From: an uncultured Gammaproteobacteria bacterium
GTDB lineage: Bacteria; Patescibacteriota; Patescibacteriia; UBA2591; UBA6264
Length of the DNA: 64,000 nucleotides
Assembly (NCBI GenBank): GCA_964596735.1
Contig: CAZQVF010000002.1
Coordinates: 82,321-146,320, forward strand
Direction of reading: 5' to 3'
A program made the position numbers and the translations under genes. Every line of letters starts with the position of its first letter. Position 1 is the stretch's first letter. The notes beneath the pieces are model-generated. The model saw only the letters and a program-made list of their open reading frames with translations, was not told the origin of the DNA and ran no database searches. Of the stretch, positions 11,411 to 43,498 are shown piece after piece.

Positions 11411-13210
11411 TTGTTTATGAAAAAAATACCTTTAGAAATCCTTCGTCACTCAACCAGTCATTTAATGGCCGCGGCTGTTTTAGAATTATTTCCCCAGGCC
11501 AAGTTTGGCATTGGTCCGGTAATTGCCAATGGTTTTTATTATGATTTTGACATAAAAGAAAGATTAACTCCTCAAGATTTGAATAAAATTGAAAAAAAAA
11601 TGAGGCAGTTGGCTAAAAAGAATTTAAAATTTGTTAAAAAAGAAATGACCATTGACCAAGCCATAAAGCTTTTTCAAAAATTAAAACAACCCTATAAAGT
11701 AGAGCTCTTGAAAGAAATAAAAGAACGCGGAACCACTGAAATGAAAGAACTTGTTGAAAAAACAATAAAACAAAAAACAAACAAAGTAACTATTTATGAA
11801 TTAGGTAATTTTGTTGACCTTTGTCGTGGTCCTCATGTCAGTTCCACTGGACAGTTAGGTGCCTATAAATTAAATAAAATTGCCGGGGCTTATTGGCGGG
11901 GTGATGAAAAAAATAAAATGCTTCAGAGGGTTTATGGCCTGGCTTTTTCTCAACAAAAAGAATTAGATGAATTTTTAAAACTTCAAGAACGAGCTGAAAA
12001 AAGAGATCATCGAAAATTAGGCCAAGAATTAGATTTATTTCAAATTAACGAAGATGTTGGCCCAGGGCTAATTCTTTGGCACCCCAAAGGAGCCACTTTA
12101 AAAAGAACTATTGAAAATTATGTTTTAGATGAATATATTAAAAATGGTTATCAAATAGTTAGCACACCTCATTTAGCTAAATTAAATCTTTGGAAAATAT
12201 CTGGTCATGATGATTTTTACAAAGAAAATATGTTTCCAGGCATGTCTATAAAGGAACTGGATAGAGAAGAGAAAGAAGATTATCAAGTAAAGCCAATGAA
12301 TTGTCCATTTCATATTGCTATTTATCAAAATACCATCAAAAGTTATCGTGATCTTCCTTTGCGTTATACAGAATTAGGCACGGTTTATCGTTATGAGAAC
12401 TCAGGAGTTTTACATGGTTTAACCCGGGTTCGAGGCTTTACTCAAGACGACGCTCATATTTTTTGCACCCCTGAACAGCTTGATAAAGAAATAGAAACTA
12501 CAGTTAAGTTTGCTATAAAAATATTAAAAACATTTAGTTTTAAAGAATATAGCGTTTATCTTTCTACTCAGCCAAAAAAATTTGTTGGCACTCAAACTAA
12601 TTGGAAAGAATCAACCAGCGCTTTGGAAAAAGCTTTGAAAAAATTCAAAATTAAATATGAAATTGATTTAGCCGGTGGTGTTTTTTATGGACCAAAAATT
12701 GATATTAAGATAAAAGATAGTTTGGGTCGGGGTTGGCAATGCACTACCATTCAAGTTGATTTTAATTTACCAGAAAAATTTGATGTCACTTATGTTGACA
12801 ACAAAGGAAAGAAACAGCAACCAATTATGATTCATCGAGCTCTTTTGGGCTCATTAGAAAGATTTATTGGTGTTTTAATTGAACACTATGCTGGGGATTT
12901 TCCTGTTTGGCTCTCCCCTATTCAAGTTTATTTAACTCCGGTTGGTAAGGCTCATTCTTCTGTAGCGAAAAAATTATCTCAGGAATTAGAAGAATTAGGA
13001 ATTAAAACAGAAGTTGATATTCTTAATGAAACTATTTCTTATAAGGTAAGGAAGGCGGAAAAACAAAAAATTCCCTATATCTTAGTCATCGGTGACAAAG
13101 AAGCTAAGGGAAAAACCTTGAATGTAAGAATGAAAGGAAATGTGGTTAAAAAAATGACCAAGAAACAATTTTTTGATAAAATACTAAAAGAAATCAAGGA
13201 TAAAAAATAA
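11411..13210 (+). CDS. thrS: Threonyl-tRNA synthetase (lacking the N-terminal TGS domain)
   Basis: Editing/N2 domain HSTSHLMAAAV...GIGPVIANGFYYDFD, class II core (RDHRKLG, motif 2/3) and C-terminal anticodon-binding domain. The stop TAA is inside a repeat element. Confidence 0.9.
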   Translation: MFMKKIPLEILRHSTSHLMAAAVLELFPQAKFGIGPVIANGFYYDFDIKERLTPQDLNKIEKKMRQLAKKNLKFVKKEMTIDQAIKLFQKLKQPYKVELLKEIKERGTTEMKELVEKTIKQKTNKVTIYELGNFVDLCRGPHVSSTGQLGAYKLNKIAGAYWRGDEKNKMLQRVYGLAFSQQKELDEFLKLQERAEKRDHRKLGQELDLFQINEDVGPGLILWHPKGATLKRTIENYVLDEYIKNGYQIVSTPHLAKLNLWKISGHDDFYKENMFPGMSIKELDREEKEDYQVKPMNCPFHIAIYQNTIKSYRDLPLRYTELGTVYRYENSGVLHGLTRVRGFTQDDAHIFCTPEQLDKEIETTVKFAIKILKTFSFKEYSVYLSTQPKKFVGTQTNWKESTSALEKALKKFKIKYEIDLAGGVFYGPKIDIKIKDSLGRGWQCTTIQVDFNLPEKFDVTYVDNKGKKQQPIMIHRALLGSLERFIGVLIEHYAGDFPVWLSPIQVYLTPVGKAHSSVAKKLSQELEELGIKTEVDILNETISYKVRKAEKQKIPYILVIGDKEAKGKTLNVRMKGNVVKKMTKKQFFDKILKEIKDKK

Positions 13211-13275: not shown

Positions 13276-13300
13276 AATAATTATTTTGATTATAAAAATT

Positions 13301-16300
13301 ATGAAAAAAACAACAAAATTATTCATTTTAGGCCTAGTTCTTGGGCTTTTTGTTTTGCCTGGAATAAAGGTCATGGCCCAAGAAACAAATGAAGAACAGC
13401 CTGTTGCTGTCCCAATAAGCGAAGAAACAGCGACCGGATCTGTTGAAGTCTCAGACGATGTTCTCTTAGATGAAGATATTATGGCTGAGGATTTAGACGT
13501 TAATGAACAAAGGCTTTTACCCACTAGTCCATATTATCCGGTTAAAACTATTTGGCGTGGCTTTCGCTCAATTATTACTTTTGATCCAGTAAAAAAAGCT
13601 GAGCTTAATCTTCGTTATGCTAATGAAAAATTAATTGAAGCAAAAAGAGTGGCTGAAGAAAAAGACAAGCCAAAAGTTGTTGCTAAAGCCTTAGAAAGAT
13701 ATAAAAAGGATTTAGAAGATGTTTCTAAAATAGTTGAAAAATCTTCAGAAGAAATTAGAACTGGGGCAGAAAATTTTGCGGAAAGAATGATTGATTATTC
13801 ATTTAAACAGCAAAAGCTAATTGATGGAATTGAAAAAAGGCTTACTCCAGAACAGTTTGAAAGGGTAAACATGGTTAGAGAAGACGGCCTTGACTATTTT
13901 AGTCATGTTGTTACTAATCTTGTTCCTCCAGAAGAAATTAAAGATAAAATCACCAATGTGATTGAAACACAAGCAGGCAGTGAATTTAAAGATTTTAAAA
14001 ACATAGAAGTTTTAAAAATCATTGAAGAAAAAATTCCTGAACAGGCCAAACAAGCTATTCAGCAGGCTCGAGAAAATACAGTCCAACGTTTACAAGAAAA
14101 AATGACAGACATGGTTGAGGTGGAAAGAAAAAAGTTTAAAGAATATGTTGAAGATGTCGGTGGTAATGAAATAAGGCATTTAGAAATTATTAATGATTTT
14201 GCCTATGAACAAATACCTGAATTTCTTCATCAGGAAATGGAAATAGCCAAAGACAAAGCCATGGAAAGAATTGAGAATAAGATGCAAGAATTTAAAAGAG
14301 AAGACCAAAAAAGAGAATTCCTCCGTCATTTAGAAGACGGTAAAATGGAGGATCTAAGAATTATTAAAGAATTGGAAAACAATTTAGCTCCAGAAACTAT
14401 TGAAAAAGTTCTTGAAATTAAAAATGCTGCTCTGGATAACTTTAGAGAGGAATTTGAAGAATTAGAGGGCGATGAAGAACAAGGAAAATTCTTAGACAAA
14501 ATGGAAAAACTCCATGATGTTAAACAATTAGAAATCTTTAAAGAAATTGAACAGGTTATTCCTCAAGATAAAAAAGATTTTTTTGAACAAATGAAACATA
14601 AGGCCATGGATGAAATGAGAAAAGAAATGGATCAGGCTAGAAATGAACGTGATAGAGCCATGATTATGGACAGACTAGTCGGTGATATGCCAGAACATAT
14701 TGAAATCATTAAAGGGTTTGCTCCACCAGAAATGATGGATGAAATGCTAAGAAAACAAGCCGATAATGTGAGAGAAAAACTTTTAAGAATAGATGACATA
14801 GAAAAGATGCAACACTTAAGGAACAGAATTGATGATACTGCTATTAGAGAGGAGCTGGAAAGAAGGGCGCCTGATATTTTCCAACAAGTGGATAGGAGAA
14901 TTGAAAACAGGTTTGAAGAAATTAGCAAAGAAAAGGCAATGGAAAAGTTAGAAAAAGCTAAAGATGAAATTAATCAAGCAGGGAAAAATTTTAAAGAATT
15001 TTTAGAAAAAGAAGGAATAGGAGAATATTTAAAGAACTCCCCTGCTCCCCAACATCTTGAAAACGCTAAGAAACATCTCCAAGAAGCTAAAACCGCTTTT
15101 GATCAAGAAAAATATGGCCACGCTCTTGGTCAGGTAAATGCTGCTTTTAATCAATTAAATTATGTTTGGCGCTTTGTTAAAGAGTTTGAATTAAAACATG
15201 AAGTGGCTCATAAGAGATTTGAAGAGATGGAAGAAACCATGGAAGACATGGTTGGTGACTTTTTAGAATTTGAGGTAATGGAAATGGAATCTGAGGAAAT
15301 GCCAATGGAAGACAAAAAAGCTTTGAATAAAATGATAAAACAAGTTAAAGAAGGAGATATGGAACAAGCTTGGGACGAATACAGGGAAAAAATGGAACAA
15401 AGACATGTTGAAGAGAAGGGCGAAATAGAAGAAGTAGAATTACCTTATGAAGAAATGAATCTTTCTAATGAACAAATAGAAAAAATCAAAGAAGCAACCA
15501 GAATTTTACCATGGGAAATTAAGCAAAAATTGCAAAACCTTCCTCCTGAAATGATTATTGAGGCAACAGAACAAATAAGAGGTAAAATACGGGCTGTTCC
15601 TGAAACAACCACAGAAAGAGTTAGGGAGAGAATTGAACAAAGAATTGAGAATAGAGGAGATCCAACTGGCCTGGCTAATCCTGCTTCTGAATTTTGTATA
15701 AAAAAAGGCGGTAAATTAGAAATTAGAACAAACGATAGTGGTGGACAATTTGGCATTTGTCATTTCCCCAACGGCACTGAATGTGAAGAATGGGCTCTTT
15801 ATAAAGGAACTTGTTTATCTGAAGACCTTAAAAAAGAACCATTGCCCTCACAAACAAGAGAAGACTGTCAACATGTGTGTAAAAACCATGGCACTCGATC
15901 TGAAGGTTGGTATGATTCTTGTACTGGAAGACTAATTGAATATGCTAAATGCGCTGGGCGCACTACTTCCGGTTCTGACTATGGTGTGCCATCTGTTTCT
16001 TCTGAAGATGTGCCTTCAACAAATTTAGATTCATCAAACATTGCCTGTCCCTCATGGGCGCCACCGGCTCCTGACTGGTGTAAGGACGGCCAACAGGTTT
16101 CTGGTGGAATCGGTCAAAACGGTTGTAAATTACCGCCTAAATGTCTTCGCGCCATTGAAGATTTGCCTTCCCCAACTGAGCCAGCTTGTATTCAAGTAAT
16201 TACTTATGCAATTAGTGGCGATCTTTGTAAGGCCTTTCCCACTCCCTGTGATGTTCCAAGTGCCTGGAGAAAGGTAGATAAATGTCCGGAAAAGACATTA

Positions 16301-16483
16301 GAAACACCAACCAAAATTATACCGACAAGGATTATCCAACAAGAAACAGGAACAAATGAATCATATATGGAACCCAAACCGATAAGAATGGAAGAAACAA
16401 AACAATTTGAAGGAACGAAGGCCCCTGAAGGTTCTCTTGGAAAGCCGTCTTTATTTGAAAAGGTAAAGGGATTGTTCCAATAG
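13301..16483 (+). CDS. Secreted ~1060-aa protein: signal peptide, long E/K/M-rich helical (coiled-coil-like) region, and a C-terminal Cys-rich region beginning with a DUF333-like module
   Basis: Signal peptide MKKTTKLFILGLVLGLFVLPGIKVMAQE. The central ~750 aa is highly charged. The C-terminal NPASEFCIKKGGKLEIRTNDSGGQFGICHFPNGTECEEWALYKGTC matches the DUF333 (putative hemolysin) pattern, followed by further Cys pairs. Start chosen at MKKTTK rather than the track's 13286. Confidence 0.6.
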   Translation: MKKTTKLFILGLVLGLFVLPGIKVMAQETNEEQPVAVPISEETATGSVEVSDDVLLDEDIMAEDLDVNEQRLLPTSPYYPVKTIWRGFRSIITFDPVKKAELNLRYANEKLIEAKRVAEEKDKPKVVAKALERYKKDLEDVSKIVEKSSEEIRTGAENFAERMIDYSFKQQKLIDGIEKRLTPEQFERVNMVREDGLDYFSHVVTNLVPPEEIKDKITNVIETQAGSEFKDFKNIEVLKIIEEKIPEQAKQAIQQARENTVQRLQEKMTDMVEVERKKFKEYVEDVGGNEIRHLEIINDFAYEQIPEFLHQEMEIAKDKAMERIENKMQEFKREDQKREFLRHLEDGKMEDLRIIKELENNLAPETIEKVLEIKNAALDNFREEFEELEGDEEQGKFLDKMEKLHDVKQLEIFKEIEQVIPQDKKDFFEQMKHKAMDEMRKEMDQARNERDRAMIMDRLVGDMPEHIEIIKGFAPPEMMDEMLRKQADNVREKLLRIDDIEKMQHLRNRIDDTAIREELERRAPDIFQQVDRRIENRFEEISKEKAMEKLEKAKDEINQAGKNFKEFLEKEGIGEYLKNSPAPQHLENAKKHLQEAKTAFDQEKYGHALGQVNAAFNQLNYVWRFVKEFELKHEVAHKRFEEMEETMEDMVGDFLEFEVMEMESEEMPMEDKKALNKMIKQVKEGDMEQAWDEYREKMEQRHVEEKGEIEEVELPYEEMNLSNEQIEKIKEATRILPWEIKQKLQNLPPEMIIEATEQIRGKIRAVPETTTERVRERIEQRIENRGDPTGLANPASEFCIKKGGKLEIRTNDSGGQFGICHFPNGTECEEWALYKGTCLSEDLKKEPLPSQTREDCQHVCKNHGTRSEGWYDSCTGRLIEYAKCAGRTTSGSDYGVPSVSSEDVPSTNLDSSNIACPSWAPPAPDWCKDGQQVSGGIGQNGCKLPPKCLRAIEDLPSPTEPACIQVITYAISGDLCKAFPTPCDVPSAWRKVDKCPEKTLETPTKIIPTRIIQQETGTNESYMEPKPIRMEETKQFEGTKAPEGSLGKPSLFEKVKGLFQ

Positions 16484-31646: not shown

Positions 31647-33728
31647 TTATCTGCTTGGTACAGAAGTTACATTGCTATCAATAATTGGTCCGTCTGGATA
31701 AACTTCATCCGCTAAAATCTCAATAACGTCATCCCATTTAAAGCCTAATGCTTCAAAAACCTGGCCTGAAGCAAAGGCTCTTTTCTTGCCAGATTCAACT
31801 AAATAAACACCTGGTTGGTCAACATACTTAATCAAAGTTCCGTCTAAACGCCCGGTAACTGGATCTCCGTCAATATAGGTTTCATTGTAAGGAATTTCAA
31901 TAACGTCTTCCCATTTAAAACCTATTCTTTCAAAGACCTCACCTGAAGCAAAGGCTCTTTTCTTACCAGATTCAATTAAATAAACGCCTGGTTGATCAGG
32001 ATATTTAATTAAAGTTCCATCTACCCTACCCTGAGGTTGAACAACAAATTGGAAACTGTTAATCATCAGCTCAAAACTTGTTTTAAAGTTAGCTTCTTTT
32101 TCAGTTCCTACATTATAAGACAAGATATAAATGCGACTATCTTTCTGAATATAAAGGGTTAAGTGTTCTGGATTCCAAACTGCTTCTTGATTGTTAACAA
32201 TAGTTGAATATAACAAGGATTGATCAATGCTTGGAGATTGTCTTAAATACCATTCAACTGGCTTTAGTCCTTCGGGATTATTTTCCACAGTGATGCTAAA
32301 AAATTCACCTGTATTTGTAATAACTAATACTTCTTGATTATTAGTTTCTGGAATAGCTCTTGCCAGCCAAGATGAAGGATAAAAGAAACTGTATGAATAA
32401 GTTGGATTAGTGTAAACATTGATTAGCCCTGAAGCAGCTAACTGAGCCCCTTCTGCTTGTTGATTAGGATCTGTAAGATTAAGAATTTCTTGGCCATCAG
32501 GGGTGGTATCAGTGTCTGAGTCAGGATTATTTACTTCTGTGTGATAAAGTGTCTCTTCAACATCTGTTAAACCATCATTGTCTGTATCTAGGCTAGATTG
32601 AACTTCTGGGGCTATCTGGAACATTTCTACTTTAGGGGTAAGTTTTTCTTTGGCTACAATAATAGCTAGGGTTTTCGCTGGCATAAGATCAAGAGCAATC
32701 GTTAATGTATTTGTTTCTTCATTAAGAGAAGAAGACAGGGGTGTCCAAAGGTTGTCTTTAAAATATCCCAGGACTAAATCTTTTTCCCATGCATCTTCAA
32801 CTAAAGCTTGATGATAAAACATTTTTAAGTCTGCTGTTTTTTTAAAAATTATATCAAGTGTCTCTTCAGTTTCAACCTCAGTTTCAATTTTTTGAGAAGA
32901 AACTTGATAAAGACCTCCTATTATCTTATAATCTCCTTCTGATTCTTCACTAGCTAACTCTCCACTAATCTCTAATTTAATATCTGTCTCTATCGCCCCT
33001 TCTGGTAAATAAATTTCTGCCCAAGAGATAATAACATCTGTTTCAGTGTTTTTTAGCTCATTCTTTAGGGTTTGTACTGGTGATAAAACCGGCTCTTCAA
33101 TAATTTCTGTCTTTTCTTCTTCAACTGGTTCAACAGGCTCTTCTAATTCTGTAGCTGTTGGCTCTGTAATTGGTTCAGGGGCAACCGATTTTTGGGAATA
33201 ATTCTGAGCCCAAAAGTAAAAACCAAGTCCTCCGGCAATAATTAAGATAACAACAACTAATAAAATAATTAAAAGCTTACCCTTCTTTTTACCTGATTTT
33301 GGTTTTTTGGGTTTAGATTTTCTAAATTTATCTGCCATCACTCGAACTGTTTCCTTGTCTGAGTCCCCTCCTTCATCTGCCTCTTGAATAATCTCCTTTT
33401 TGGCTAATTCTGGAGTAGCAAATTTAGTGGCTGACGGTTGAGGTGGTGGCGGGCTTGGTTGTTCAGGTGTTGGAGGCTCTGTTGAAGGTGTTGGGGCAAC
33501 TGGTTCTTGTTGTGGCAATTCAGCCGCAGGTTCAGGAGTTGTCTCAGGGACAGATGTATCTGTGGCTGGCTCTGAAGGTGCGGGAGCAGCTGTCGGTTCA
33601 GTTACTGGTTCAGTTGCCGGAACGGCTGGCTGGGCTGCTCCTGGTTCAGCTGGAGGAACCGGCGAAGAGCCCTGGGTAGCTGGCTCCTGCGGTTGCTGTG
33701 ATGATTGTTGTTGTTTTTCATCAAACAT
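31647..33728 (-). CDS. Membrane-anchored extracellular protein: Pro/Ala/Glu-rich cytoplasmic N-terminus, TM anchor, acidic region with DxDxDG-type Ca-binding motifs, two C-terminal ~60-aa tandem repeats
   Basis: The N-terminal 100 aa are PA-rich and GC-rich in DNA. TM LLIILLVVVILIIAGGLGFYF. Motifs DTDNDGLTDVEE and DSDTDTTPDGQE. Repeats GR(V/L)DGTLIKYxDQPGVYL(I/V)ESGKKRAFASGxVFExxGFKW(E/D)DVIEI x2; the DNA repeat spans 31700-32040. Confidence 0.6.
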   Translation of the reverse strand: MFDEKQQQSSQQPQEPATQGSSPVPPAEPGAAQPAVPATEPVTEPTAAPAPSEPATDTSVPETTPEPAAELPQQEPVAPTPSTEPPTPEQPSPPPPQPSATKFATPELAKKEIIQEADEGGDSDKETVRVMADKFRKSKPKKPKSGKKKGKLLIILLVVVILIIAGGLGFYFWAQNYSQKSVAPEPITEPTATELEEPVEPVEEEKTEIIEEPVLSPVQTLKNELKNTETDVIISWAEIYLPEGAIETDIKLEISGELASEESEGDYKIIGGLYQVSSQKIETEVETEETLDIIFKKTADLKMFYHQALVEDAWEKDLVLGYFKDNLWTPLSSSLNEETNTLTIALDLMPAKTLAIIVAKEKLTPKVEMFQIAPEVQSSLDTDNDGLTDVEETLYHTEVNNPDSDTDTTPDGQEILNLTDPNQQAEGAQLAASGLINVYTNPTYSYSFFYPSSWLARAIPETNNQEVLVITNTGEFFSITVENNPEGLKPVEWYLRQSPSIDQSLLYSTIVNNQEAVWNPEHLTLYIQKDSRIYILSYNVGTEKEANFKTSFELMINSFQFVVQPQGRVDGTLIKYPDQPGVYLIESGKKRAFASGEVFERIGFKWEDVIEIPYNETYIDGDPVTGRLDGTLIKYVDQPGVYLVESGKKRAFASGQVFEALGFKWDDVIEILADEVYPDGPIIDSNVTSVPSR

Positions 33729-33751: not shown

Positions 33752-34339
33752 TTATTTTATTTTTTGGATTTCTTTTTGTAAATCCAAAAGTTTTGCATTT
33801 GGATTAGGATCTTTAGGGTCACCCCCTTTTCTTACTTCTTCCCCGTCTAAAATTCCATCTTCATCTGTATCAGATTTTAATGGGTCGGTTAAATAAATTT
33901 TAACTTCTTCTTTATCAAAAAGGCCGTCTTGATCACTATCTAAACTATTTATCTGGGTCCCTAATTCGCGTTCTTCTGCATCTGTTAAACCGTCATGATC
34001 TGAGTCTAATGTTTCCTCGTCGTCCCCTGATTCTTCTAAATCTACTGGAGTTTCTGTTAATTCTTCTTGTCCTGCTTGTTCAACTGGTGTCTCAACCCTG
34101 CCTTCTTCTGAAGATTTTCCTTTTATTTTAGAAAAAACAAACCAGAGAGCAATGATAAGGATAACAATAACAATGATGATTATTATTAAACGAATTACCT
34201 TGCTTATATTAACCCTTTTTTTAAACTTTGGTTCTACTTTTTTTGTTTCAATAGATTGCCCCTCTACCTGAGCCACTGTAGAAGATGGTGTTTTTTCAAC
34301 TTTATCAAAAATGTCTTCAGTTTTATTTTCTTCTGGCAT
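33752..34339 (-). CDS. Membrane-anchored protein with three thrombospondin-type-3-like Ca-binding repeats
   Basis: TM LIIIIIVIVILIIALWFVF, then DSDHDGLTDAEE, DSDQDGLFDKEE, DTDEDGILDGEE. Confidence 0.6.
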   Translation of the reverse strand: MPEENKTEDIFDKVEKTPSSTVAQVEGQSIETKKVEPKFKKRVNISKVIRLIIIIIVIVILIIALWFVFSKIKGKSSEEGRVETPVEQAGQEELTETPVDLEESGDDEETLDSDHDGLTDAEERELGTQINSLDSDQDGLFDKEEVKIYLTDPLKSDTDEDGILDGEEVRKGGDPKDPNPNAKLLDLQKEIQKIK

Positions 34340-34366: not shown

Positions 34367-37300
34367 TTACTGATCAAGATCTCCACAATTACGTTTGAGG
34401 CCACTTCCCGGACCACAATAATAGTCTTTATTATGAACCAAGAAATCATTGGCAAAGTAGTTATGTAGTTTATCAACTTCTAGATTATAAACTGTTTGCT
34501 GATCTATTGCCTTTTTAATTTTAATAATTTTAACAAATTCTAATCGCCCATTATTATTTATTTTCCCAACCTCATCCCAAATGTTTAAATCTTTAACTTT
34601 TAAATATCCTTTTCTAGTATAGATAGGATGAATATTTGTTACCTTTAAAACTGAATAGTCTAAAAGTGTCATTATATAATAATCTTGTTTTTCATGTTCA
34701 AATGTTTGCATTACTTTGACTTTTTGGATTCTATTTTTTTCTAAATCATACCCATTAATTATGTCTCCGACTTTAATGTCCTCAATGTTTTTAAATCCAT
34801 TCTCAGTTGTAATTAAAGTCCCGGCAATAAAACATCCTGCTTCGTCTCCACAACAAAATTGATCATCATCACAACTGCTACCACAAGTGGCAACGCAATC
34901 ACTACAATAAGTCGAATCAGTAGGACAACCATCTTCTGAAGGACCCCATTGACAATCATCTTCACAATAGCGACATTGACCCGCTCCTACATAGTCTCCC
35001 TCACCAGGTGTACATGCGTTTTTTGGAGGAAGATCACATATTCCACTTTGACACTCGCCACATGCCTCCATACACTCTGTTCCATCCGATACAGATTGAT
35101 CAGCTGGACAGCTGCTAGAAGAACCTGTGCAGGTTTCTGATATATCACACTCAGAGTCTGCTGGGCGACAAACATATTCTGAAGACCGATAATAACAACC
35201 ATCACAACAAGCTCCCGTAGTACAGTCGCAGGGAGGAACACAAGCACCATTATTACAAACTTCCCCAGTAGGACAGCAAACACCAGCACAACAAGTTCCT
35301 GTATCACAACCTAAATAAGGTGGCGGCCCTGTGTCTGTAACTGGATCACAATCTCCAGTACCATCACACTGATAACAAGTTGTACATTGAGCAGTAGATT
35401 GCCCACAACTAGCTGTTAATATATTGCCGGCATCAGCATTAATTGTCACGCCAAAAGCTCCTGAATTATCTGTTTTACAAACACCATTATAAGCACAGCT
35501 ACGATAATATATTGTTCCTGAACAAGCCCCAGAAGTACAAGAATTATCTATATCACAATAATAAGTAGATGAAACTGATATTTCTGAACCGTTAACGCAA
35601 ACCTTGTTTTCTGCCACAATTGAACCATTGTTACCAACATCATAAGAACAAGCATGTCCAGCAGAACATCTTAATTCATCTCTTGTTTTAAAACAATCTG
35701 TATTACAGTAATTCCAAGAAGAAAAATCGCAAAGTGTCGTTCCGTTTGGCGAACAACTACCGGTTAAAGTTTTGCCAGTATTAGGATAAACTGTTTGTTG
35801 GTAAGAACCTGTCGCGTCTGCTTTACAAGCTCCACTACCATCACAACCACGATAATATCTATAACCAACACAAGCACCGTTTGTACAATCATCAACAATC
35901 GCCCCGCAATAATTACTAGTGCTACGATAAGCCAGGGTGCAATCAGGATATAATACACAATTTGCCTGAGCCATGATTGGTTGTAAATGACCGCCCGTGT
36001 AGTCACCTACACCCCGGCAAGCCCCACTACCATTACATGAGCGATACCATCTAGTCCCTGAGCAACTATTATTACTGCAATTATTTTCAGGTGATCCACA
36101 ATAATTTGAGGCTGAAACAGAAGTGATTTCACCTGCTCCTGTACAAACAGAACCAGAAGGAATATTTTCTGTGCCGCCACTAGGATCACAAGACCCACTA
36201 GAACCACATAGCCCACTACCTCCCCCTCTAACACAATCACTGTCGCAAGAAATCCAACCTATTTCACACTGATTAAACGGATCTTGACCTGCTGTCTGAT
36301 TTACACAAGATCCGTTATAACATCTTTTACAAGTATCCTGGCATAATGTTGAGCCAACAGTATCTTGGGTATTATTTGTTTTATTAACACAGGTTCCAGA
36401 ACCTGCCCCATCACAAGTCTGACAAGCTGAACAATTTCTATCTCCAGAAGTATAATAATCTGTACAAAAGCCGCTGCCGTCACAATTACCAGTTAAACAT
36501 CCACTAGTATCATTGCAAATATTTCTGGGATCATTTCCTGCACTGACATTATGACAGGTTCCAGCTGATCCACCAAAACCTTCACCACAATATTCACAAC
36601 TCCCAGTACAAGACATATCACAACAAACTCCGTCAACACAACTTCCTGAATGACAATTTGCGTCACCTGAACAAGCTTCACCATTGGCTTTTAACGCACA
36701 AGAAACTCCACTCCAAGAACAATTATTACATTCAAGAAAACCGGTTGGTTCACTTTCATATCCTAAGCCTTCACATGTTGCTGCTGGAATAAATCCCTCT
36801 GATGGAAAAGTTGTTCCCGGACAATATCCTGATTGAAATGGAGAACAGCAGGTTCCATAACCACTTCCGCAATCACATTGTTCTCCGCATTGGAGTGTTC
36901 CGTCTCCGCAAACAGGTGCTCCTGGTGACTCATAAATATAATTAAAATCCCCTGAAGAATCTGATTGGGTAGTGATAACGTCTTCTTCCCCTTTCCAGAT
37001 GATTCCCCCATTACCATATTCTAAATTGACTGATAAGGTATAATATTCACCTAAACAACCTGATTGATCTGGAGCATAATATTGATAAACATGAGACCCA
37101 TCAGGAATCTCAAAAATTTGAGTACTAGGGTTATAACAAGTATTATCACATTGAGAATCTGGTTCATCAATACAACCAGCACAAGGACCATTAAATTCAT
37201 TAATTGGATCAACTGGTAATGATTCTCCTAAGGCTTGTGATAAAGTATTTGTCCAAGAAGGCCAAAGACTATTGCTTTTACTCAAGACATATGTCCCTGC

Positions 37301-40300
37301 CCCCAAGGTTGGATATTCACCTTGTTCTTGATAATGCTCTTCTAATTCATCTTTTATTTCTTGAAAATTATAAAGTCTTAATAAGTCGTTTTGTAGCTTG
37401 GGTTTATCTTCAAAATAATTATCTAAATTAATATTAAATTCCCAATTATATAATATCTGATTAAATATTTCTATTGTTTTTGGGCTTGCTCCATCATTAT
37501 ATGAAATTAAATAAACATAGGTATAAACTCCCTGATCAGCACAAGTAAGTGTTGCAATATAGCTTCCATGTCCTGTTACACCCCATGCCCCATTATTATA
37601 TCTCATATAACCTCCTCCTGATCCAGTAGTTGTGTAGGACTCAAAGCCACTGTAATTTTGATCATCAACACAATATTGCTGAGCCGTCGCGTTGTCAGGA
37701 TATAAATAATATGAACCATGTTGAGGATTAGAAAAATTATCAGTATCTGAACCCAAATTAGTTGCCCCAACATAAGTAGTTCTTCCTTCTCGCAAAGCAT
37801 AATAGTTATCAATAACAAAATTGCTCGGCTTTCCCGGATTTGGTACATTTTGTTCGTACCAGTTTAAAACACTCAGTCTTTTTGGATTATTAAATACTTT
37901 TAAGCCAATTACGTCTCCTGAATCACCAACGGAAAAAAGAAATTCTTTAATTAAAGGATCACTGCCTTCTATTGATGCCTCTGCTAATTCTGGCAATCTG
38001 TCTGCTTCGGCTTGAGCTAAGTCTCCTCGACAATAACTTAATTTAAATTGAGTATTTGGAGCAAAACCTGGACCAGCTGCATCTTCAAAAGTCCAAGGAA
38101 CTTCGCAAATAAGAACGTTTGCTTCTGTTATTCCTAAAACAGAAATAGCTGGATCAGAACCAACAATCGTGGCCGTAGCCGTAATCTGCACTCGGCCATT
38201 TCTGTCTTGAGCCATAGCTGTTTCATCTTCTGAACTAGATCCTGTTATTGAAACAACTGCTGGGTCTGAAGATTCCCATGACCAGGTCCAGTCATAAACA
38301 TCAGGAATTCCTAATATTTCATTGCCCTGATTATCATATGTGTAAGCAATTAAATTTTCTGATTCGTCCGTGGATGTGAAGTCAATTGTTTTTGGTTCAA
38401 TATCAACTTCTGACAGAGTACAAATTTGATCAGAAGTAGTAAATGTTGAATTATAATCAGCGGCCATACCAACACCATAAATGCTTTCTACTCCGTTTTC
38501 CCCGCCTAGAATTGTTATTTGATATTCTTGATTAGAATCAAGTAATCCGGCATTTATATTTACTATTGTCTTATTTTCATTATAACAAGTAAGTGTTGCA
38601 ATATAGCTTCCATGTCCTGTTACACCCCATGCCCCATTATTATATCTCATATAGCTTCCCAGTGTTAGGGTAGTTGTATAGGAGTCAAAGCCCCTGTAAT
38701 CTTGATCAAGACAATATTGCTGAGCTGTTGCACTACTAGGATATAAATAATATGAACCATGTTGAGGATTGGGAATGTCATTAGTAGGTTCTCGAAAGAT
38801 ATCGTCAACAGCTGAAACATCAACTGTCGAAGTTATATCATCCCATAAAGTAGTCCATTTAAAAAATTTTATTGTGTCTTTTGAAATACTTGATCTGTCC
38901 ATGGGTTGATCAAAAATTGCTTTAATTACTGAATTGCGACAAACATTAGAGCCAGAAGGTTGAAAAGTTTCTACATTAGGATAAATGGCTACCACTAAAT
39001 CAACAGAGTTAGTTACTGGCTCGCCTGCTGATGGAGTAGCCGTAACCTCAATTTCTGTTTCTCCTAAGTCTACGGCCGTAGCCATAGCAGTATAAGTGGG
39101 TGTTTGCGGAGCCACAGTGGCCACACCCGGTTCTGTTGATTCCCATGTCCAAGTAAATGTATCTGGTCTTAAAATCTGACAATCTGGACCAATTGGCAAA
39201 GCAGAATAATCTTTAGTTCCTGATTCAATAATTATCCCAACCGGATCTTGTTCAAATATTTCTATTGCTTGAGCAGAACAAACCTCTGCCTGGTCTTTTG
39301 TTTTAAAATACCAAGTATAGTCGTCATTGGGCGAGTCGTCTTCAATTCCGTCCTTGTTTCCGTCTAACTGATAATTATCAACCGAATCTACAATCCCTGT
39401 TTCCCCACTTTTAAGAGTAACTTGATACCAATAATTTTGATCCAACAGAACACCAGGTGTATAAATAAATCCTTTACTACAGAGTAGTGTATCAATTCTT
39501 TCTGCTGAACTTTCTTCAACCCATTCTCCGTCTACATACCTCATATAGTCATCAATTGGACCAACTGTAGAATAAGTCGCTTTAAAACTAGTATAACCGT
39601 GTTCAAAACAAAATCGATTGGCTGTTGTTATGTCTGGATATAAATGAACTGCATTGTGTTGGGGGTTAACAAATGACTTGTCTGTTTCCACAATTGTTCC
39701 GCTAACATCAGTGGTGCATGATGCTGAATCAAACATTTCATTGCCTAGATTACATTTCTCAACAATGATATTAGTGTTTGATAAATTATCTACTTCCATG
39801 TTAAAACGAGCTGAAATCAATGCATTGCGGCAGGCTTGCGAAGATAAATGACGCGGGGAAGGGGTCTGGATATTGTTTAAGCAAGTACTGTCTTCAAAAA
39901 CCTGGGGAAGATCAAAAGTTTCTGGATCTTCCGGCGGCAAAACTGGGGGGGAAAGCACACTAGTAAATTCTCCTGAACCAGAATACCCCGATATTGTTGC
40001 AGAAATATCAGTGGTCTGCTCCCCTTCTCCTTCCACAGGAGAAACCGTAGTTTCTAATGCTTGGCTAGGACTAACCACAGCGATATTAATGTCATCTGAT
40101 TGCCAGAAAAATTCTGCCACACAAATCGGGTTATTATTAAAATTATATCCCTGGGCTGTATAAATAACACTGTCTTCAAAAGATTCAACAATAGCACTGT
40201 CTGGACTAACAATAATTTCACTAATTTCGCATATATTATCTTCAGGTCCAGTTGCAAATTGCCAAGTATAATCATCCATGGAAACGCCCAGGCTATCGCG

Positions 40301-43300
40301 AATACCTTGTCCATCAAGCCCCCCAATTAATTCTACCTTGTAACCTGTGTATGGATCTAAATCACAATCTATTGGTAATAAATTAACCTGATCATTGTCT
40401 TCATTAATAATTAAATTATAACTTACGTCTTGTTCAGATGATTCCTGCCTTAAATCAACCTGATAAATTCTAATATTAGAATCATGGGGCGACTCAGACC
40501 AATCATTGTCCCACTCTAATCTAATCGTGTGCGTCCCTGCAGTAATATTACCCAATGAAACATTTGAAATCTGGTGACCTAATGTTGCGTCAGCGCAAAA
40601 ATCACCCTTTTCAACATTGTCAACAAACACTTTAACGTGATGTTGAACACCTGGTTCAGAACAAACTCCGTCTTCGCCAAAATCTTTAACATCTGCTGAA
40701 TAATTAGACGTTTCTACATAGATCTGATAATCACCATCTGCGCTAACATTAAAACTATAATCCCACCAATTAACATCACAACGGCCAGTATAAATACCTG
40801 ACTGATCAAGACAACTAGTGTATTGGGTGGTTGTATAATCTATTCCAAGCTTGGATTCAATTAAAGGAGGTAATTTTTTTAATTTAATATTATTTGTATT
40901 TAAAGAGTTTCTGTCCATGTCTTGACTGAAATTAGCCTCAATAGCTGTATTTAAACAAACCGCCTCTCCAGTTGGGCTATTACTGGTTATTGTTGGTTGA
41001 GCATAACAGCATTGATTTGGATCTAAAAATCCGCAGCCTAATCCGTTTCCACATTGGTCATCACTTTCACACCCACAGCAAAGACCACGATCATCACCAG
41101 TACAACTTCCTTGATTAGCCATACATTCCAAAGGAGCCTCGCAAGAATTTGTAATAACATCGCAGCAACATCGGCAAGTGTCTGTTGCTTCATATAGGCA
41201 ATTATAAATGGGGGTCGAACAATTATAAGGAGGGTTGTCAGGACAAAAAGTTGCCTCTTGGCAGGCTTGGCCTGGTCCGCCCGGATGTTGTAAAATATCA
41301 AAAGGCAATTCATTACTCATGCCCTGATCATTTTCAACATATACTAAACCGTCTTCTGATCCCAAAGGAACTAAAGCACTACTAATTTGTTGGTCTGACC
41401 AGGTTTGATAAACAGCTAATTTATTATTATAAAATACCACCTTACTTCCTGCTGACTCTACGCCAAATCTTATTCCTGATAAATCAACTTCTGTTTCATT
41501 TGAATAACCGGCTGACGGATTAATAGAGAAAAGACAGGGCCCATTTGCCTGTTCATTACTGTCTACATAAAACTCAACTAAATTACTAGTTAATTGATCT
41601 CCACCATCATATTCAATAGTCGCCTGGACTTCTGGCCGATCCCCTTGTGAATAAATATCTGGCACTTGTGTAGTTAAATAATTATTGTCAGATCCTTCAA
41701 TTGCTGTTTGAGTAGGTGTTCCATTAAGAATAAAATCTATTTTTATTGGAAGAGCTGGCTGAGTAGCTGTTCCCTCAAAACAGCTGCCATGAAGTGTTAT
41801 ACACTCACCTTTTGAACCTTGAGCCGGTTCTAGATGTGAAATCCAAGGTGAACAAAAGCAGTTTCCCATGGTGGCTGTTGTAAATTCCCAAAAGTCAGAA
41901 AGTAAAGTGCCTTGTTGATCAATGACTAAATCAGTTAAAACTGTTACCTGATAATCTGATTCAGTTTGTAAATTATCATCTGGATCAAAAGTAAAAACTC
42001 TAAAATGATTATTAACTGGGTCACCTGGATCATCTACTCTAAAAACACCACCAATAACTATTTCTTCATAAGGAGGGTCAAATTCACTTGGTCGCATCTC
42101 AAAATCAAAATTATCACCCCCGCCACTAATTTCAAACCTAACTAAGTTGCCATACATCTGGGTGCCAAAAGTCACACTAATATCAGTGTCCGGACAAACC
42201 AAAGTACCGGTTGGGTGCCAAAAACTAATTCCTGGTGCTTGATCATTGGTCTGGAACTCCCACTCAAGTGGTTCGTCCATCTGGTTCATGCAAAGATCTT
42301 CAATGTTGCCAACATGAATCCGATACCAGGTAAATGCTTGTAATAAATTTTCATCTCTTAAAGAAATTCTAAATCCATTACTAATCGCCCCAATTTCAAA
42401 AATCTCTTTAGCCAAAGTTTCAACTATCGTCCCCCCTTGACCATCTAACCTGGCCAGCCAAATATTTGTTTCAATTGGATAATTATTTTCATCAGCTACT
42501 GTGGTCATATCAATTGGCTCAGAAAAACTAGCCTCAATACTTGGTTTTCGGGAAACATTTTGATCTGGATAATCAGGATCACTTTGGTCAAAAATTGGAT
42601 AAGTAGCAACAATCTCTGGTGGGACGGTGTCAAGGGTTTCTCCAGTCATAAAATTCCAAAGAAAATAACTGCCAGCGTCAAGACAATCGCCAGCAGCTAA
42701 ACAGACTTGAAGAAATTCTCCCTGAGTGTCTGAAATTGCTTTGGGAAAATAAGCCTCATAAGAAGTATTAGGATCAAAAAGGTCAGGATGTTTGAAAATA
42801 ATAATATTATTTCTGGTTTGCCAACTACCACTAACCGGGCTTGCCCCGGTTTCAATTCTTAAATCCCCGGCTGTTTCTAAGTCCTCAATTATTAGCCCAT
42901 CAACTGAATGATTAAATATTGGCTGAACAGCAGAACAAAGATAAACATCCTGATGATAATTCTGCTCTAAGCCGCCATGAGTTGTTTCAATTTTTCTAAT
43001 TCTAAAAGCATCTGGAGGCAATGAACAGTCTGGATCAGAAATATTACAACTACCACCAGAATCGCAACGCAAACCCGGGCCACAGCAAAGACCTGGAGTA
43101 CAACCTCCACTGCCTCCTAGGCCTTCTCCAGTCACTCCGCTTAACCGGCCCATAATAAAAGATACTATTGCATAAGCAAAAACAATAATCAAAAGCCCGA
43201 TTAAACCACTAGAAATAATTTTCTTGGCTTTGGTTACCTTGTCAGCAACCCCCCCTGAGGTCATCCAAATAAAACCACCGGCAATCATAATGATGACGGC

Positions 43301-43498
43301 GATTAAACCTAAAAGGCTTAGTCCAATTTTAACAATGTTACCAATTACTTGGGGCAAAGGGGCTTCTCCATAACCGGCTGCTTCGCCAAAATTTATTAAC
43401 TCTTCATTTCCCAGTGTTTGAGCCTGAACCGGTAAAATAAAATAGAATAAACAAAAAACCGTAAACACCAAAAATGTAATTTTAAAAATATTTTTCAT
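34367..43498 (-). CDS. Giant (3043 aa) cell-surface protein: signal peptide + VirB2/TrbC-like pilin double-TM N-terminus, Ig/IPT-like domains, tandem internal repeats, extensive Cys-rich modules, C-terminal Hint/BIL domain
   Basis: Signal peptide MKNIFKITFLVFTVFCLFYFILPVQA. Two TM helices separated by a short loop (IGLSLLGLIAVIIMIAGGFIWM / LIGLLIIVFAYAIVSFIM). An IPT-like CSPWISHLEPAQGSKGECITLHGSCF. Repeated ...YMRYNNGAWGVTGHGSYIATLTC modules. Dense C-x-C arrays. CFIAG...FLVHN at the C-terminus. The antisense ORFs listed in the track over this region are spurious. Confidence 0.85.
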   Translation of the reverse strand: MKNIFKITFLVFTVFCLFYFILPVQAQTLGNEELINFGEAAGYGEAPLPQVIGNIVKIGLSLLGLIAVIIMIAGGFIWMTSGGVADKVTKAKKIISSGLIGLLIIVFAYAIVSFIMGRLSGVTGEGLGGSGGCTPGLCCGPGLRCDSGGSCNISDPDCSLPPDAFRIRKIETTHGGLEQNYHQDVYLCSAVQPIFNHSVDGLIIEDLETAGDLRIETGASPVSGSWQTRNNIIIFKHPDLFDPNTSYEAYFPKAISDTQGEFLQVCLAAGDCLDAGSYFLWNFMTGETLDTVPPEIVATYPIFDQSDPDYPDQNVSRKPSIEASFSEPIDMTTVADENNYPIETNIWLARLDGQGGTIVETLAKEIFEIGAISNGFRISLRDENLLQAFTWYRIHVGNIEDLCMNQMDEPLEWEFQTNDQAPGISFWHPTGTLVCPDTDISVTFGTQMYGNLVRFEISGGGDNFDFEMRPSEFDPPYEEIVIGGVFRVDDPGDPVNNHFRVFTFDPDDNLQTESDYQVTVLTDLVIDQQGTLLSDFWEFTTATMGNCFCSPWISHLEPAQGSKGECITLHGSCFEGTATQPALPIKIDFILNGTPTQTAIEGSDNNYLTTQVPDIYSQGDRPEVQATIEYDGGDQLTSNLVEFYVDSNEQANGPCLFSINPSAGYSNETEVDLSGIRFGVESAGSKVVFYNNKLAVYQTWSDQQISSALVPLGSEDGLVYVENDQGMSNELPFDILQHPGGPGQACQEATFCPDNPPYNCSTPIYNCLYEATDTCRCCCDVITNSCEAPLECMANQGSCTGDDRGLCCGCESDDQCGNGLGCGFLDPNQCCYAQPTITSNSPTGEAVCLNTAIEANFSQDMDRNSLNTNNIKLKKLPPLIESKLGIDYTTTQYTSCLDQSGIYTGRCDVNWWDYSFNVSADGDYQIYVETSNYSADVKDFGEDGVCSEPGVQHHVKVFVDNVEKGDFCADATLGHQISNVSLGNITAGTHTIRLEWDNDWSESPHDSNIRIYQVDLRQESSEQDVSYNLIINEDNDQVNLLPIDCDLDPYTGYKVELIGGLDGQGIRDSLGVSMDDYTWQFATGPEDNICEISEIIVSPDSAIVESFEDSVIYTAQGYNFNNNPICVAEFFWQSDDINIAVVSPSQALETTVSPVEGEGEQTTDISATISGYSGSGEFTSVLSPPVLPPEDPETFDLPQVFEDSTCLNNIQTPSPRHLSSQACRNALISARFNMEVDNLSNTNIIVEKCNLGNEMFDSASCTTDVSGTIVETDKSFVNPQHNAVHLYPDITTANRFCFEHGYTSFKATYSTVGPIDDYMRYVDGEWVEESSAERIDTLLCSKGFIYTPGVLLDQNYWYQVTLKSGETGIVDSVDNYQLDGNKDGIEDDSPNDDYTWYFKTKDQAEVCSAQAIEIFEQDPVGIIIESGTKDYSALPIGPDCQILRPDTFTWTWESTEPGVATVAPQTPTYTAMATAVDLGETEIEVTATPSAGEPVTNSVDLVVAIYPNVETFQPSGSNVCRNSVIKAIFDQPMDRSSISKDTIKFFKWTTLWDDITSTVDVSAVDDIFREPTNDIPNPQHGSYYLYPSSATAQQYCLDQDYRGFDSYTTTLTLGSYMRYNNGAWGVTGHGSYIATLTCYNENKTIVNINAGLLDSNQEYQITILGGENGVESIYGVGMAADYNSTFTTSDQICTLSEVDIEPKTIDFTSTDESENLIAYTYDNQGNEILGIPDVYDWTWSWESSDPAVVSITGSSSEDETAMAQDRNGRVQITATATIVGSDPAISVLGITEANVLICEVPWTFEDAAGPGFAPNTQFKLSYCRGDLAQAEADRLPELAEASIEGSDPLIKEFLFSVGDSGDVIGLKVFNNPKRLSVLNWYEQNVPNPGKPSNFVIDNYYALREGRTTYVGATNLGSDTDNFSNPQHGSYYLYPDNATAQQYCVDDQNYSGFESYTTTGSGGGYMRYNNGAWGVTGHGSYIATLTCADQGVYTYVYLISYNDGASPKTIEIFNQILYNWEFNINLDNYFEDKPKLQNDLLRLYNFQEIKDELEEHYQEQGEYPTLGAGTYVLSKSNSLWPSWTNTLSQALGESLPVDPINEFNGPCAGCIDEPDSQCDNTCYNPSTQIFEIPDGSHVYQYYAPDQSGCLGEYYTLSVNLEYGNGGIIWKGEEDVITTQSDSSGDFNYIYESPGAPVCGDGTLQCGEQCDCGSGYGTCCSPFQSGYCPGTTFPSEGFIPAATCEGLGYESEPTGFLECNNCSWSGVSCALKANGEACSGDANCHSGSCVDGVCCDMSCTGSCEYCGEGFGGSAGTCHNVSAGNDPRNICNDTSGCLTGNCDGSGFCTDYYTSGDRNCSACQTCDGAGSGTCVNKTNNTQDTVGSTLCQDTCKRCYNGSCVNQTAGQDPFNQCEIGWISCDSDCVRGGGSGLCGSSGSCDPSGGTENIPSGSVCTGAGEITSVSASNYCGSPENNCSNNSCSGTRWYRSCNGSGACRGVGDYTGGHLQPIMAQANCVLYPDCTLAYRSTSNYCGAIVDDCTNGACVGYRYYRGCDGSGACKADATGSYQQTVYPNTGKTLTGSCSPNGTTLCDFSSWNYCNTDCFKTRDELRCSAGHACSYDVGNNGSIVAENKVCVNGSEISVSSTYYCDIDNSCTSGACSGTIYYRSCAYNGVCKTDNSGAFGVTINADAGNILTASCGQSTAQCTTCYQCDGTGDCDPVTDTGPPPYLGCDTGTCCAGVCCPTGEVCNNGACVPPCDCTTGACCDGCYYRSSEYVCRPADSECDISETCTGSSSSCPADQSVSDGTECMEACGECQSGICDLPPKNACTPGEGDYVGAGQCRYCEDDCQWGPSEDGCPTDSTYCSDCVATCGSSCDDDQFCCGDEAGCFIAGTLITTENGFKNIEDIKVGDIINGYDLEKNRIQKVKVMQTFEHEKQDYYIMTLLDYSVLKVTNIHPIYTRKGYLKVKDLNIWDEVGKINNNGRLEFVKIIKIKKAIDQQTVYNLEVDKLHNYFANDFLVHNKDYYCGPGSGLKRNCGDLDQ
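34430..34834 (-). other. Hint (intein-like, BIL-type) domain, 135 aa, 20 aa from the C-terminus of the giant protein
   Basis: Starts CFIAGTLITTENG (block A-like) and ends NDFLVHN (block G His-Asn). The +1 residue is Lys, which is not a nucleophile. There is no endonuclease insert. Confidence 0.7.
37530..37760. repeat. Internal repeat A within the giant gene
   Basis: A 70-nt stretch identical to 38586-38655 (acaagtaagtgttgcaatatagcttccatgtcctgttacaccccatgccccattattatatctcatata), with flanks ~80-85% identical. Confidence 0.8.
38575..38800. repeat. Internal repeat B within the giant gene (paralogous to 37530-37760)
   Basis: See repeat A; a third, more diverged copy lies near 39540-39700. Confidence 0.8.

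Follow-up and report, generated by a model that had tools for sequence, protein, structure and literature searches.

A giant patescibacterial protein with a VirB2-type pilin module at its N terminus and an intein-like domain inserted 20 residues before its C terminus

A 64,000-nucleotide stretch of contig CAZQVF010000002.1 (assembly GCA_964596735.1; hereafter the window) contains a giant gene at 34367..43498 on the minus strand, with an ATG start and 3043 codons plus a stop codon. From N to C terminus, its 3043-amino-acid product comprises a signal peptide, a VirB2-type pilin hairpin, a Gly/Cys-rich linker, an Ig-like stalk with NPQH modules, a family-signature domain, a Cys-rich region, a Hint domain of the bacterial intein-like (BIL) kind, and a short tail. 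We interpret the protein, with a probability of about 0.6, as a hypervariable, membrane-tethered fiber of the adhesin type, whose distal BIL domain removes itself and whose 3′ coding end is an exchangeable cassette. The component parts are all of known kinds, and we regard the giant protein as a useful lead rather than as a new kind of system.

An earlier note on this DNA had described a single 9.1-kb open reading frame (ORF), and the frame is indeed intact. An identical 3043-residue product was called on four contigs, the smallest of 20-50 kb and the largest of more than 200 kb, and a diverged orthologue (L008; GCA_964642485.1, contig CAZXPA010000004.1) has the matching C-terminal layout of Cys-rich region, Hint domain, and 20-residue tail. 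Synteny is also kept on both sides of the giant gene. We found no point in favor of an assembly artefact, a possibility that the earlier note had itself raised and in which a chimera or frameshift would have produced the long frame or its junction with the Hint. Because the identical protein is present on four contigs and an independent orthologue shares the C-terminal layout, such an artefact is very unlikely, and we give it almost no weight. In the L008 record, ambiguous bases at 7,860-7,880 shift the frame, and the giant gene is split into calls of 2025 and 1510 amino acids. The gene content of that contig is Patescibacteria-like, as opposed to its record label of 'uncultured Gammaproteobacteria'; the contig is probably mis-binned.

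The 135 residues from Cys2889 to Asn3023 (34430..34834, minus strand) form a type-A BIL/PT-HINT domain, in agreement with the Hint/BIL identity proposed in the earlier note. The PT-HINT family (PF07591) scored 49.9-51.2 bits against a Pfam gathering cut-off (GA) of 27.7, and TIGR01443 (intein_Cterm) scored 22 against a cut-off of 15.6. The closest solved relative is PDB entry 2LWY, a 'bacterial intein-like domain' from Clostridium thermocellum (E 1.3e-12). Cys2889, Thr2954/His2957, and His3022-Asn3023 align to 2LWY and are conserved in the homologues P0120 and P0005; the G|C-F junction (Gly2888|Cys2889-Phe), the TxxH motif (T2954-x-x-H2957), and the terminal H-N pair are kept in all three Hint-bearing orthologues. 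The domain does not classify as a canonical class 1 intein: its +1 position is occupied by Lys, it sits in a variable region of its host, and the Pfam Intein_splicing model stayed below its cut-off (29.4-35.5 against a GA of 35.8).

The window also contains a genuine intein, which resides in the DnaE (DNA polymerase III alpha subunit) gene at 5892-10220 (plus strand), matches Intein_splicing at amino acids 613-979 (E 2.8e-19), carries a Phage_endo_I-like endonuclease insert, and ends in VVHN|S. An origin of the Hint domain as a copy of this DnaE intein was rejected, the similarity being at the level of motifs only. A foreign origin, as its low GC content (26%) might imply, was likewise rejected: GC at third codon positions (GC3) is 0.21, the same as in the rest of the gene. 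GC3 being native-like, the low GC content is accounted for by a composition rich in Lys, Ile, and Asn.

The earlier note had remarked that the Lys following the domain (Lys3024) makes canonical splicing impossible. The residue is as described, but it is no oddity. Among the 150 nearest representatives (P0119-P0268) of 14,354 matches to the Hint domain at E <= 0.001, Lys follows 233 of 401 [VAIT]HN motifs and is thus the norm of the subfamily, and type-A BILs can ligate their flanks by aminolysis. Many of these 150 relatives contain 2-10 Hints in tandem, separated by Gly-rich linkers (…VHNKGGGG…), and about 30 of them end no more than 25 residues past the last Hint. Type-A BILs combine formation of an N-terminal thioester with cyclization of the terminal Asn; they yield mostly cleavage products, and their flanks can be ligated via the freed amino group (PMC4031507; for type-A BIL and Hedgehog chemistry, PMC5874633). 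For type-A BILs, PMC4031507 cites Amitai 2003 and Dassa 2004.

The domain of the giant protein resembles type-A BILs such as 2LWY in its Cys1, its block-B TxxH, its C-terminal His-Asn, the lack of a +1 nucleophile, and its position within a variable part of a secreted protein. It differs in having a new host protein, just 20 residues after the domain, and an interspecies recombination tract inside it (see below). A second relevant comparison is with Hedgehog/Hog proteins. There, too, a secreted cargo is joined to a C-terminal Hint at a Gly|Cys-Phe junction, and, as here, an N-S acyl shift would result in a cargo that bears a reactive thioester. In contrast to Hedgehog, the giant protein has no sterol-recognition region and nothing extra past the Hint, and the Hedgehog model PF01079 matched with 21.8 bits, below its GA of 29.7, over the N-terminal part only. 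The His-Asn pair of the giant protein is present, so cleavage at the C-terminal end of the domain would be possible as well.

As the earlier note had indicated, only 20 residues follow the Hint domain. This tail, KDYYCGPGSGLKRNCGDLDQ (the C-extein; aa 3024-3043, 34370..34429, minus strand), starts with Lys3024, and both its length and its two Cys residues are kept in L008, although the L008 protein is just 51-60% identical elsewhere. Three Hint-less relatives (P0007, P0008, and P0009) can be aligned as far as the insertion point, and their sequences end 16-22 residues beyond it. Another relative, P0005, has a Hint at the same site, followed by ~395 residues of Cys-rich repeats. A Hint ending is rare in the family and was found in three orthologues. 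Given the equivalent tails of the Hint-less relatives and the conservation of the tail in L008, the Hint is best regarded as an insertion near the native C terminus and not as the stump of a lost toxin. Hence, the previous description of the Hint as the terminal domain is better replaced by that of an insertion 20 residues before the native C terminus. At the C terminus of the Hint-less P0009 (…FCCSPIKGCNFIPGNYINPCLESDI), 'GCNFIPG' takes the place of 'GCFIAG', with which the Hint of the window protein begins. P0009 may once have had a Hint at this site and lost it, these residues being the scar, as opposed to never having had one.

PT-HINT is the pre-toxin Hint family of Pfam, and NCBI relatives of the domain are named 'polymorphic toxin-type HINT domain-containing protein'. 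The giant protein could accordingly be a degenerate polymorphic toxin: a C-terminal toxin cassette downstream of the PT-HINT would have been lost, and the 20-residue tail would be a functionless remnant. Two distant matches (P0105 and P0106) are Rhs proteins with 80-115 residues past the Hint, and the giant shares with polymorphic toxins (Rhs, CdiA, MafB) a PT-HINT near the C terminus of a giant secreted protein and a 3′ cassette that is swapped between strains. The long extension past the Hint of P0005 might be taken in the same sense, but it consists of Cys-rich repeats and contains no toxin. The giant protein itself lacks a toxin domain and any T5/T6/T7 (type V, VI, or VII secretion) trafficking domain, and no immunity gene accompanies it. 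The adjacent downstream gene (33752..34339, minus strand) encodes a 195-residue single-pass membrane protein with TSP3_bac Ca-binding repeats; it is also found at Hint-less loci and is therefore not an immunity gene. A tail whose length and Cys residues are conserved, the tails of equivalent length in Hint-less relatives, and the ~30 of the 150 nearest Hint proteins that likewise end within 25 residues of the domain also argue against a remnant, and we consider the loss of a toxin improbable enough to be given little credence.

Comparison with other strains reveals how variable the giant gene is. Strain L002 represents a near-identical organism (ParB 100%, MreC 98%, and YqeY 97% identical). 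Its giant protein is 84% identical to that of the window, and the DNA is 87.5% identical up to codon ~2743. Along the gene, synonymous divergence (pS) ranges from 0.06 to 0.66, and these swings indicate a recombination mosaic. The last ~900 nucleotides, which encode the terminal Cys module, the Hint, and the tail, are represented in L002 by unrelated sequence and an extra small gene; homology picks up again in the gene downstream of the giant. No Hint remnants were detected by tblastn in L002 or L003. A secreted, hypervariable protein as the setting of the Hint, which the earlier note had anticipated, is supported.

A 138-nucleotide tract inside the Hint (34472..34609, minus strand) is ~98% identical to the L008 gene (at ~12,340-12,480 there), compared with ~66% elsewhere; it includes an exact run of 81 nucleotides, and the identity extends to synonymous sites. 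The L008 organism is distant (ParB 77% and MreC 64% identical). A tract of ~98% identity within a background of ~66%, shared by distant organisms, points to recent gene conversion or interspecies transfer of Hint DNA. An exact search with a 54-mer from the tract returned no JGI metagenome contig and, among GTDB species genomes, only the contig of L008; no donor or third copy of the tract was found in these two collections.

The clean insertion relative to the Hint-less relatives, the absence of the Hint from the nearest strain, the native-like GC3, and the highly identical tract shared with an organism of so different ParB and MreC sequences are also in line with a selfish or neutral intein-like insertion, one that spreads by recombination, only removes itself, and adds nothing to the adhesin. 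The Hint, however, has no homing endonuclease. Without a +1 nucleophile, it should splice precisely only at low efficiency (PMC4031507), and selection would act against a selfish element that harms the protein hosting it. Moreover, C-terminal or tandem Hints recur in thousands of secreted proteins (the 14,354 matches mentioned above), suggesting use, and the catalytic residues are kept in all three orthologues. We take a purely selfish insertion as a serious possibility but a doubtful one.

The opposite end of the protein supplies the proposed membrane tether. Hydropathy analysis of the whole giant protein revealed hydrophobic segments only at amino acids 3-29, 48-85, and 91-123. The first belongs to a Sec-type signal peptide (aa 1-26, …LPVQA|QT; 43421..43498, minus strand), and the 'AQ' column at the end of the signal peptide is kept in an alignment of small pilins and giants. 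The other two segments belong to a VirB2-type pilin module (aa 27-125; 43124..43420, minus strand), consisting of two helices and the basic loop TSGGVADKVTKAKK between them; a Gly/Cys-rich linker with six Cys residues follows (aa 126-165; 43004..43123, minus strand). The earlier note had likened the N terminus to conjugative pilins and had suggested scoring it against type IV secretion system (T4SS) pilin models and predicting its structure. When amino acids 1-400 were scanned alone, the Pfam T4SS_pilin model (PF18895) scored 28.5 bits, above its GA of 26.6; in the full-length scan it scored 25.6 bits, slightly below the GA. A precomputed PF18895 annotation is present for P0001 and nearly all homologues. 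AlphaFold2 predicted a helix-loop-helix with helices at residues 48-79 and 85-122 (pLDDT ~90). Hydropathy and the AlphaFold2 model thus give the layout of a PF18895 pilin: a signal peptide and then a pair of hydrophobic helices with a short basic loop between them.

The nearest relatives of the module are stand-alone Patescibacteria pilins of 117-152 residues (38-49% identity), and the resemblance claimed earlier is supported. Searches with the module and with a profile derived from it retrieved small stand-alone proteins of 106-330 residues (34-61% identity and E 1e-33 to 1e-44 in the profile search), whose source names are 'pilin' or 'VirB2 component' and some of which also match TrbC. Gly64, Gly75, Trp78, Gly83, and Gly101 are invariant in the alignment of small pilins and giants. 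No other part of the gene is as constrained as the module, which shows 98% amino acid identity to strain L002 and a ratio of nonsynonymous to synonymous divergence (pN/pS) of 0.05. Patescibacteria VirB2-like pilins, which share with the giant module the signal peptide, the two-helix hairpin with its basic loop, the match above the Pfam cut-off, and the Gly/Trp positions, are ~110-150 residues long and are often arrayed or encoded near virB4. In contrast, the giant module bears a 2,900-residue passenger, and the giant gene is placed between parAB-yqeY and mreC-pbp2.

Arrays of pilin genes have been described in Patescibacteria, namely in Southlakia epibionticum and TM7x (Quinonero-Coronel 2025, PMC12102498; Wang 2023, PMC10633639), and neither report mentions giant fusions of the pilin module. 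One of the relatives found here, P0108, sits in a four-gene pilin array. At locus L004 (8250-10459), four PF18895 pilin genes are arrayed, the first of which encodes a 246-residue protein fused to PG_binding_1; smaller fusions to the pilin module therefore exist too.

Is the giant protein, then, a modular conjugative-type pilin, whose VirB2-like module is extracted by a patescibacterial T4SS into a pilus, sparsely or at one end, so that the pilus displays a giant adhesin? At the profile level, the module is indistinguishable from the small pilins, with which it shares the invariant residues; it is under very strong purifying selection, and the PG_binding_1 protein within a pilin array shows that there are other fusions. 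VirB2-like pilins and VirB4 are also widespread in Patescibacteria (PMC12102498; PMC10633639), and the array is essential in Southlakia (PMC10633639). Against this, the conserved neighborhood of the giant gene comprises parAB, mreC-pbp2, or ftsAZ rather than T4SS genes. The earlier note had proposed looking for VirB4/VirB6-like or type IV pilus assembly genes; there are none of them among the ORFs of the 64-kb window, nor are there T4SS genes within ±10 kb of five related loci. A passenger of 2,900 residues on each subunit would presumably not fit the packing of a homopolymeric pilus. In addition, Foldseek comparison of the hairpin model with the PDB gave no match at E <= 0.001, only generic helical hairpins; an Aeropyrum conjugation pilus (8dfu) came up at an insignificant E of 4.8, and the sequence profile of the module gave spurious PDB matches only. 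We consider incorporation into a pilus unlikely and favor the hairpin as a membrane tether.

Giant proteins with this kind of anchor are common. A full-length search returned 106 homologues of 1.7-5 thousand residues, nearly all from Patescibacteria (Kerfeld-, Komeili-, Buchanan-, and Jacksonbacteria among the named relatives), and the pilin module is present at residues ~27-140 in 102 of them; the layout of pilin module and Ig-like stalk is therefore common to at least 102 giants. In NCBI, family members are labeled only 'Ig-like domain-containing protein'. Our literature searches found no published description of PF18895 fusions or of giant pilin-anchored proteins of the candidate phyla radiation (CPR). 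The 'Pam' pili of CPR bacteria are an unrelated donor-strand system. Thus, the earlier claim of an undescribed architecture holds only in part: no description exists as far as our searches reach, but the combination of a VirB2 module with a giant Ig-like stalk is not unique to this protein. It is abundant in databases, and the BIL-tipped allele is its rare variant.

The design itself has parallels. RTX adhesins are giant adhesins built of Ig repeats, and modular type IV pilins, e.g., those of Streptococcus sanguinis, carry grafted domains. Giant surface proteins have also been described in the CPR bacterium Vampirococcus (PMC8080830). Common to all of these and to the giant protein are one end held by the cell, a long Ig-like stalk, and distal modules, and modular type IV pilins follow the same principle of a pilin module that bears a grafted functional domain. 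What sets the giant protein apart is its anchor: in place of an RTX retention module, LPXTG motif, or type IV pilin helix, it has a conjugative-type (VirB2) hairpin.

Between the anchor and the Hint, the protein consists of modules that would form the body of the fiber. The Ig-like stalk (aa ~166-1815; 38054..43003, minus strand) contains Big_5, TIG, and Big_2-like units, so that the Ig/IPT-like modules of the earlier note were confirmed. In the full-length Pfam scan, Big_5 matched four stretches (E 2e-31), best at amino acids 299-417; of two IPT/TIG units (aa 545-650 and 648-745), the latter scored 21.9 bits against a GA of 20.9. A Cys-rich linker with 18 Cys residues lies inside the stalk (aa 745-835), and several Big_5 domains are interrupted by inserts, one of which (aa 880-1045) matched no Pfam family above cut-off when scanned alone. 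The three paralogous NPQH modules seen previously are all there: modules 1 (aa 1262-1347; 39458..39715) and 2 (aa 1572-1638; 38585..38785) are each located within a Big_5 domain, and module 3 (aa 1919-1986; 37541..37744, all on the minus strand) is 78% identical to module 2 (E 1.5e-33). Each contains two invariant Cys residues, and no relative was found by a Pfam scan of the isolated fragments or by profile search of the PDB.

A family-signature domain (aa ~1990-2215; 36854..37531, minus strand) is kept in ~55 family members; its fold may weakly resemble type IV pilin heads, and its sequence profile gave spurious matches or none in the PDB. The disulfide-rich region that follows (aa 2216-2888; 34835..36853, minus strand) spans 2.0 kb and 673 residues, 94 of which (14%) are Cys. 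It includes three internal repeats of ~65-85 residues (2446-2520, 2526-2582, and 2628-2698). No Pfam family reached its cut-off in this region; Disintegrin-like matches scored 18.9-24.4 bits against a GA of 35.1. The previously reported extent of more than 1 kb is confirmed, but 'CxC/CxxC arrays' overstates the pattern, as there are 1 CxC, 11 CxxC, and 6 CC motifs with varied spacing.

The giant gene occupies a conserved chromosomal site, with the order parAB-yqeY-giant-TSP3 gene-mreC-pbp2. At five loci, parAB-(S21)-yqeY lies upstream, and a TSP3 membrane protein, a protein of ~700-800 residues, and mreC-pbp2 (or ftsA-ftsZ) lie downstream; the TSP3 gene follows the giant gene in L001, L002, L008, and L010. 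Neighbors in the window include parA, parB, yqeY, mreC, pbp2, greA, tRNA synthetases, and recJ, with a GC content of 30-39%. Judged by this gene content and by the names that homologues bear, the organism belongs to the Patescibacteria. The second conserved downstream partner is, in the window, a 693-residue Pro/Glu-rich membrane protein (31647-33728, minus strand). Both partners evolve fast between strains, with 80% (TSP3 protein) and 79% (693-residue protein) identity versus 98-100% for ParB and MreC. In Kerfeldbacteria (L010, CP181398.1, 1-20074), two tandem giants of 3314 and 3357 residues precede, in this order, a He_PIG/Big_7 protein, a TSP3 protein, and ftsA-ftsZ. The window also encodes, at 13286-16483 (plus strand), a large uncharacterized envelope-type protein of 1065 residues with DUF5667 and DUF333.

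Taken as a membrane-tethered fiber with a self-removing BIL domain, the giant protein would be exported by Sec and lose its signal peptide. The hairpin would remain embedded in the cytoplasmic membrane, its basic loop facing the cytoplasm and both of its ends the exterior, so that an ectodomain of ~2,900 residues would project from the cell, the inserted NPQH and Cys-rich modules being its likely binding parts. The BIL would form a thioester at Gly2888-Cys2889 and cyclize Asn3023, thereby cutting itself out. By analogy with characterized type-A BILs, the outcome would be mostly cleavage; some religation of the 20-residue tail onto Gly2888 is possible, and the spliced junction would read …GDEAG-KDYYCGPGSGLK…. 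The 3′ end of the gene, BIL included, would serve as an exchangeable cassette that diversifies the tip between strains. Such a protein could plausibly have a role in host attachment, the organism plausibly being an episymbiont.

Several points weigh against this interpretation. In comparison with L002, no stretch of 100 codons reaches a pN/pS of 1 (maximum 0.8), giving no direct sign of positive selection, and Pfam and PDB profile scans of the giant protein identified no binding domain of recognized specificity. Two further negatives, no significant structural match for the hairpin and no T4SS gene among the ORFs of the window, count on the same side. Cys1 must stay reduced next to an extracellular region that is presumably disulfide-bonded; alternatively, a Hint folded in the cytoplasm could act before export. 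Finally, domain identities, catalytic residues, insertion geometry, synteny, the replacement of the cassette, and the recombination tract are shown by the sequences, whereas the autoprocessing, the topology, and the binding, like Sec export and the adhesive role, are steps that we infer.

How Patescibacteria recognize and hold their hosts is largely unexplained, and the giant family is a candidate for this function. In the sole genetically tractable species, the T4SS and VirB2-like pilins are essential, without an assigned substrate or adhesin (PMC10633639), and no adhesins were detected in PMC12102498. Incorporation of the giant into a pilus is worth testing because, if it occurs, the essential patescibacterial T4SS would gain its missing adhesin. 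A still bolder combination, to our minds a long shot, is that the VirB2 module is a general display device of Patescibacteria, the pilus built by the essential T4SS bearing or ending in megadalton adhesins of this family, and that, in alleles such as the present one, the terminal BIL leaves a thioester on Gly2888 that covalently couples the fiber tip to a nucleophile of the host surface; if true, episymbionts would attach by means of a 'reactive tip' akin to Hedgehog. If the hairpin is only an anchor, PF18895 matches should not be counted as pilus subunits without a check of protein length, which would still be useful for annotation. The recombination tract is evidence that Hint-coding DNA moves between species, and the BIL-tipped alleles offer a natural case in which to address the role of C-terminal Hints on secreted proteins. 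As core-genome, fast-recombining surface proteins that open with a pilin module, the giants connect T4SS pilins with host attachment in a concrete way that can be tested.

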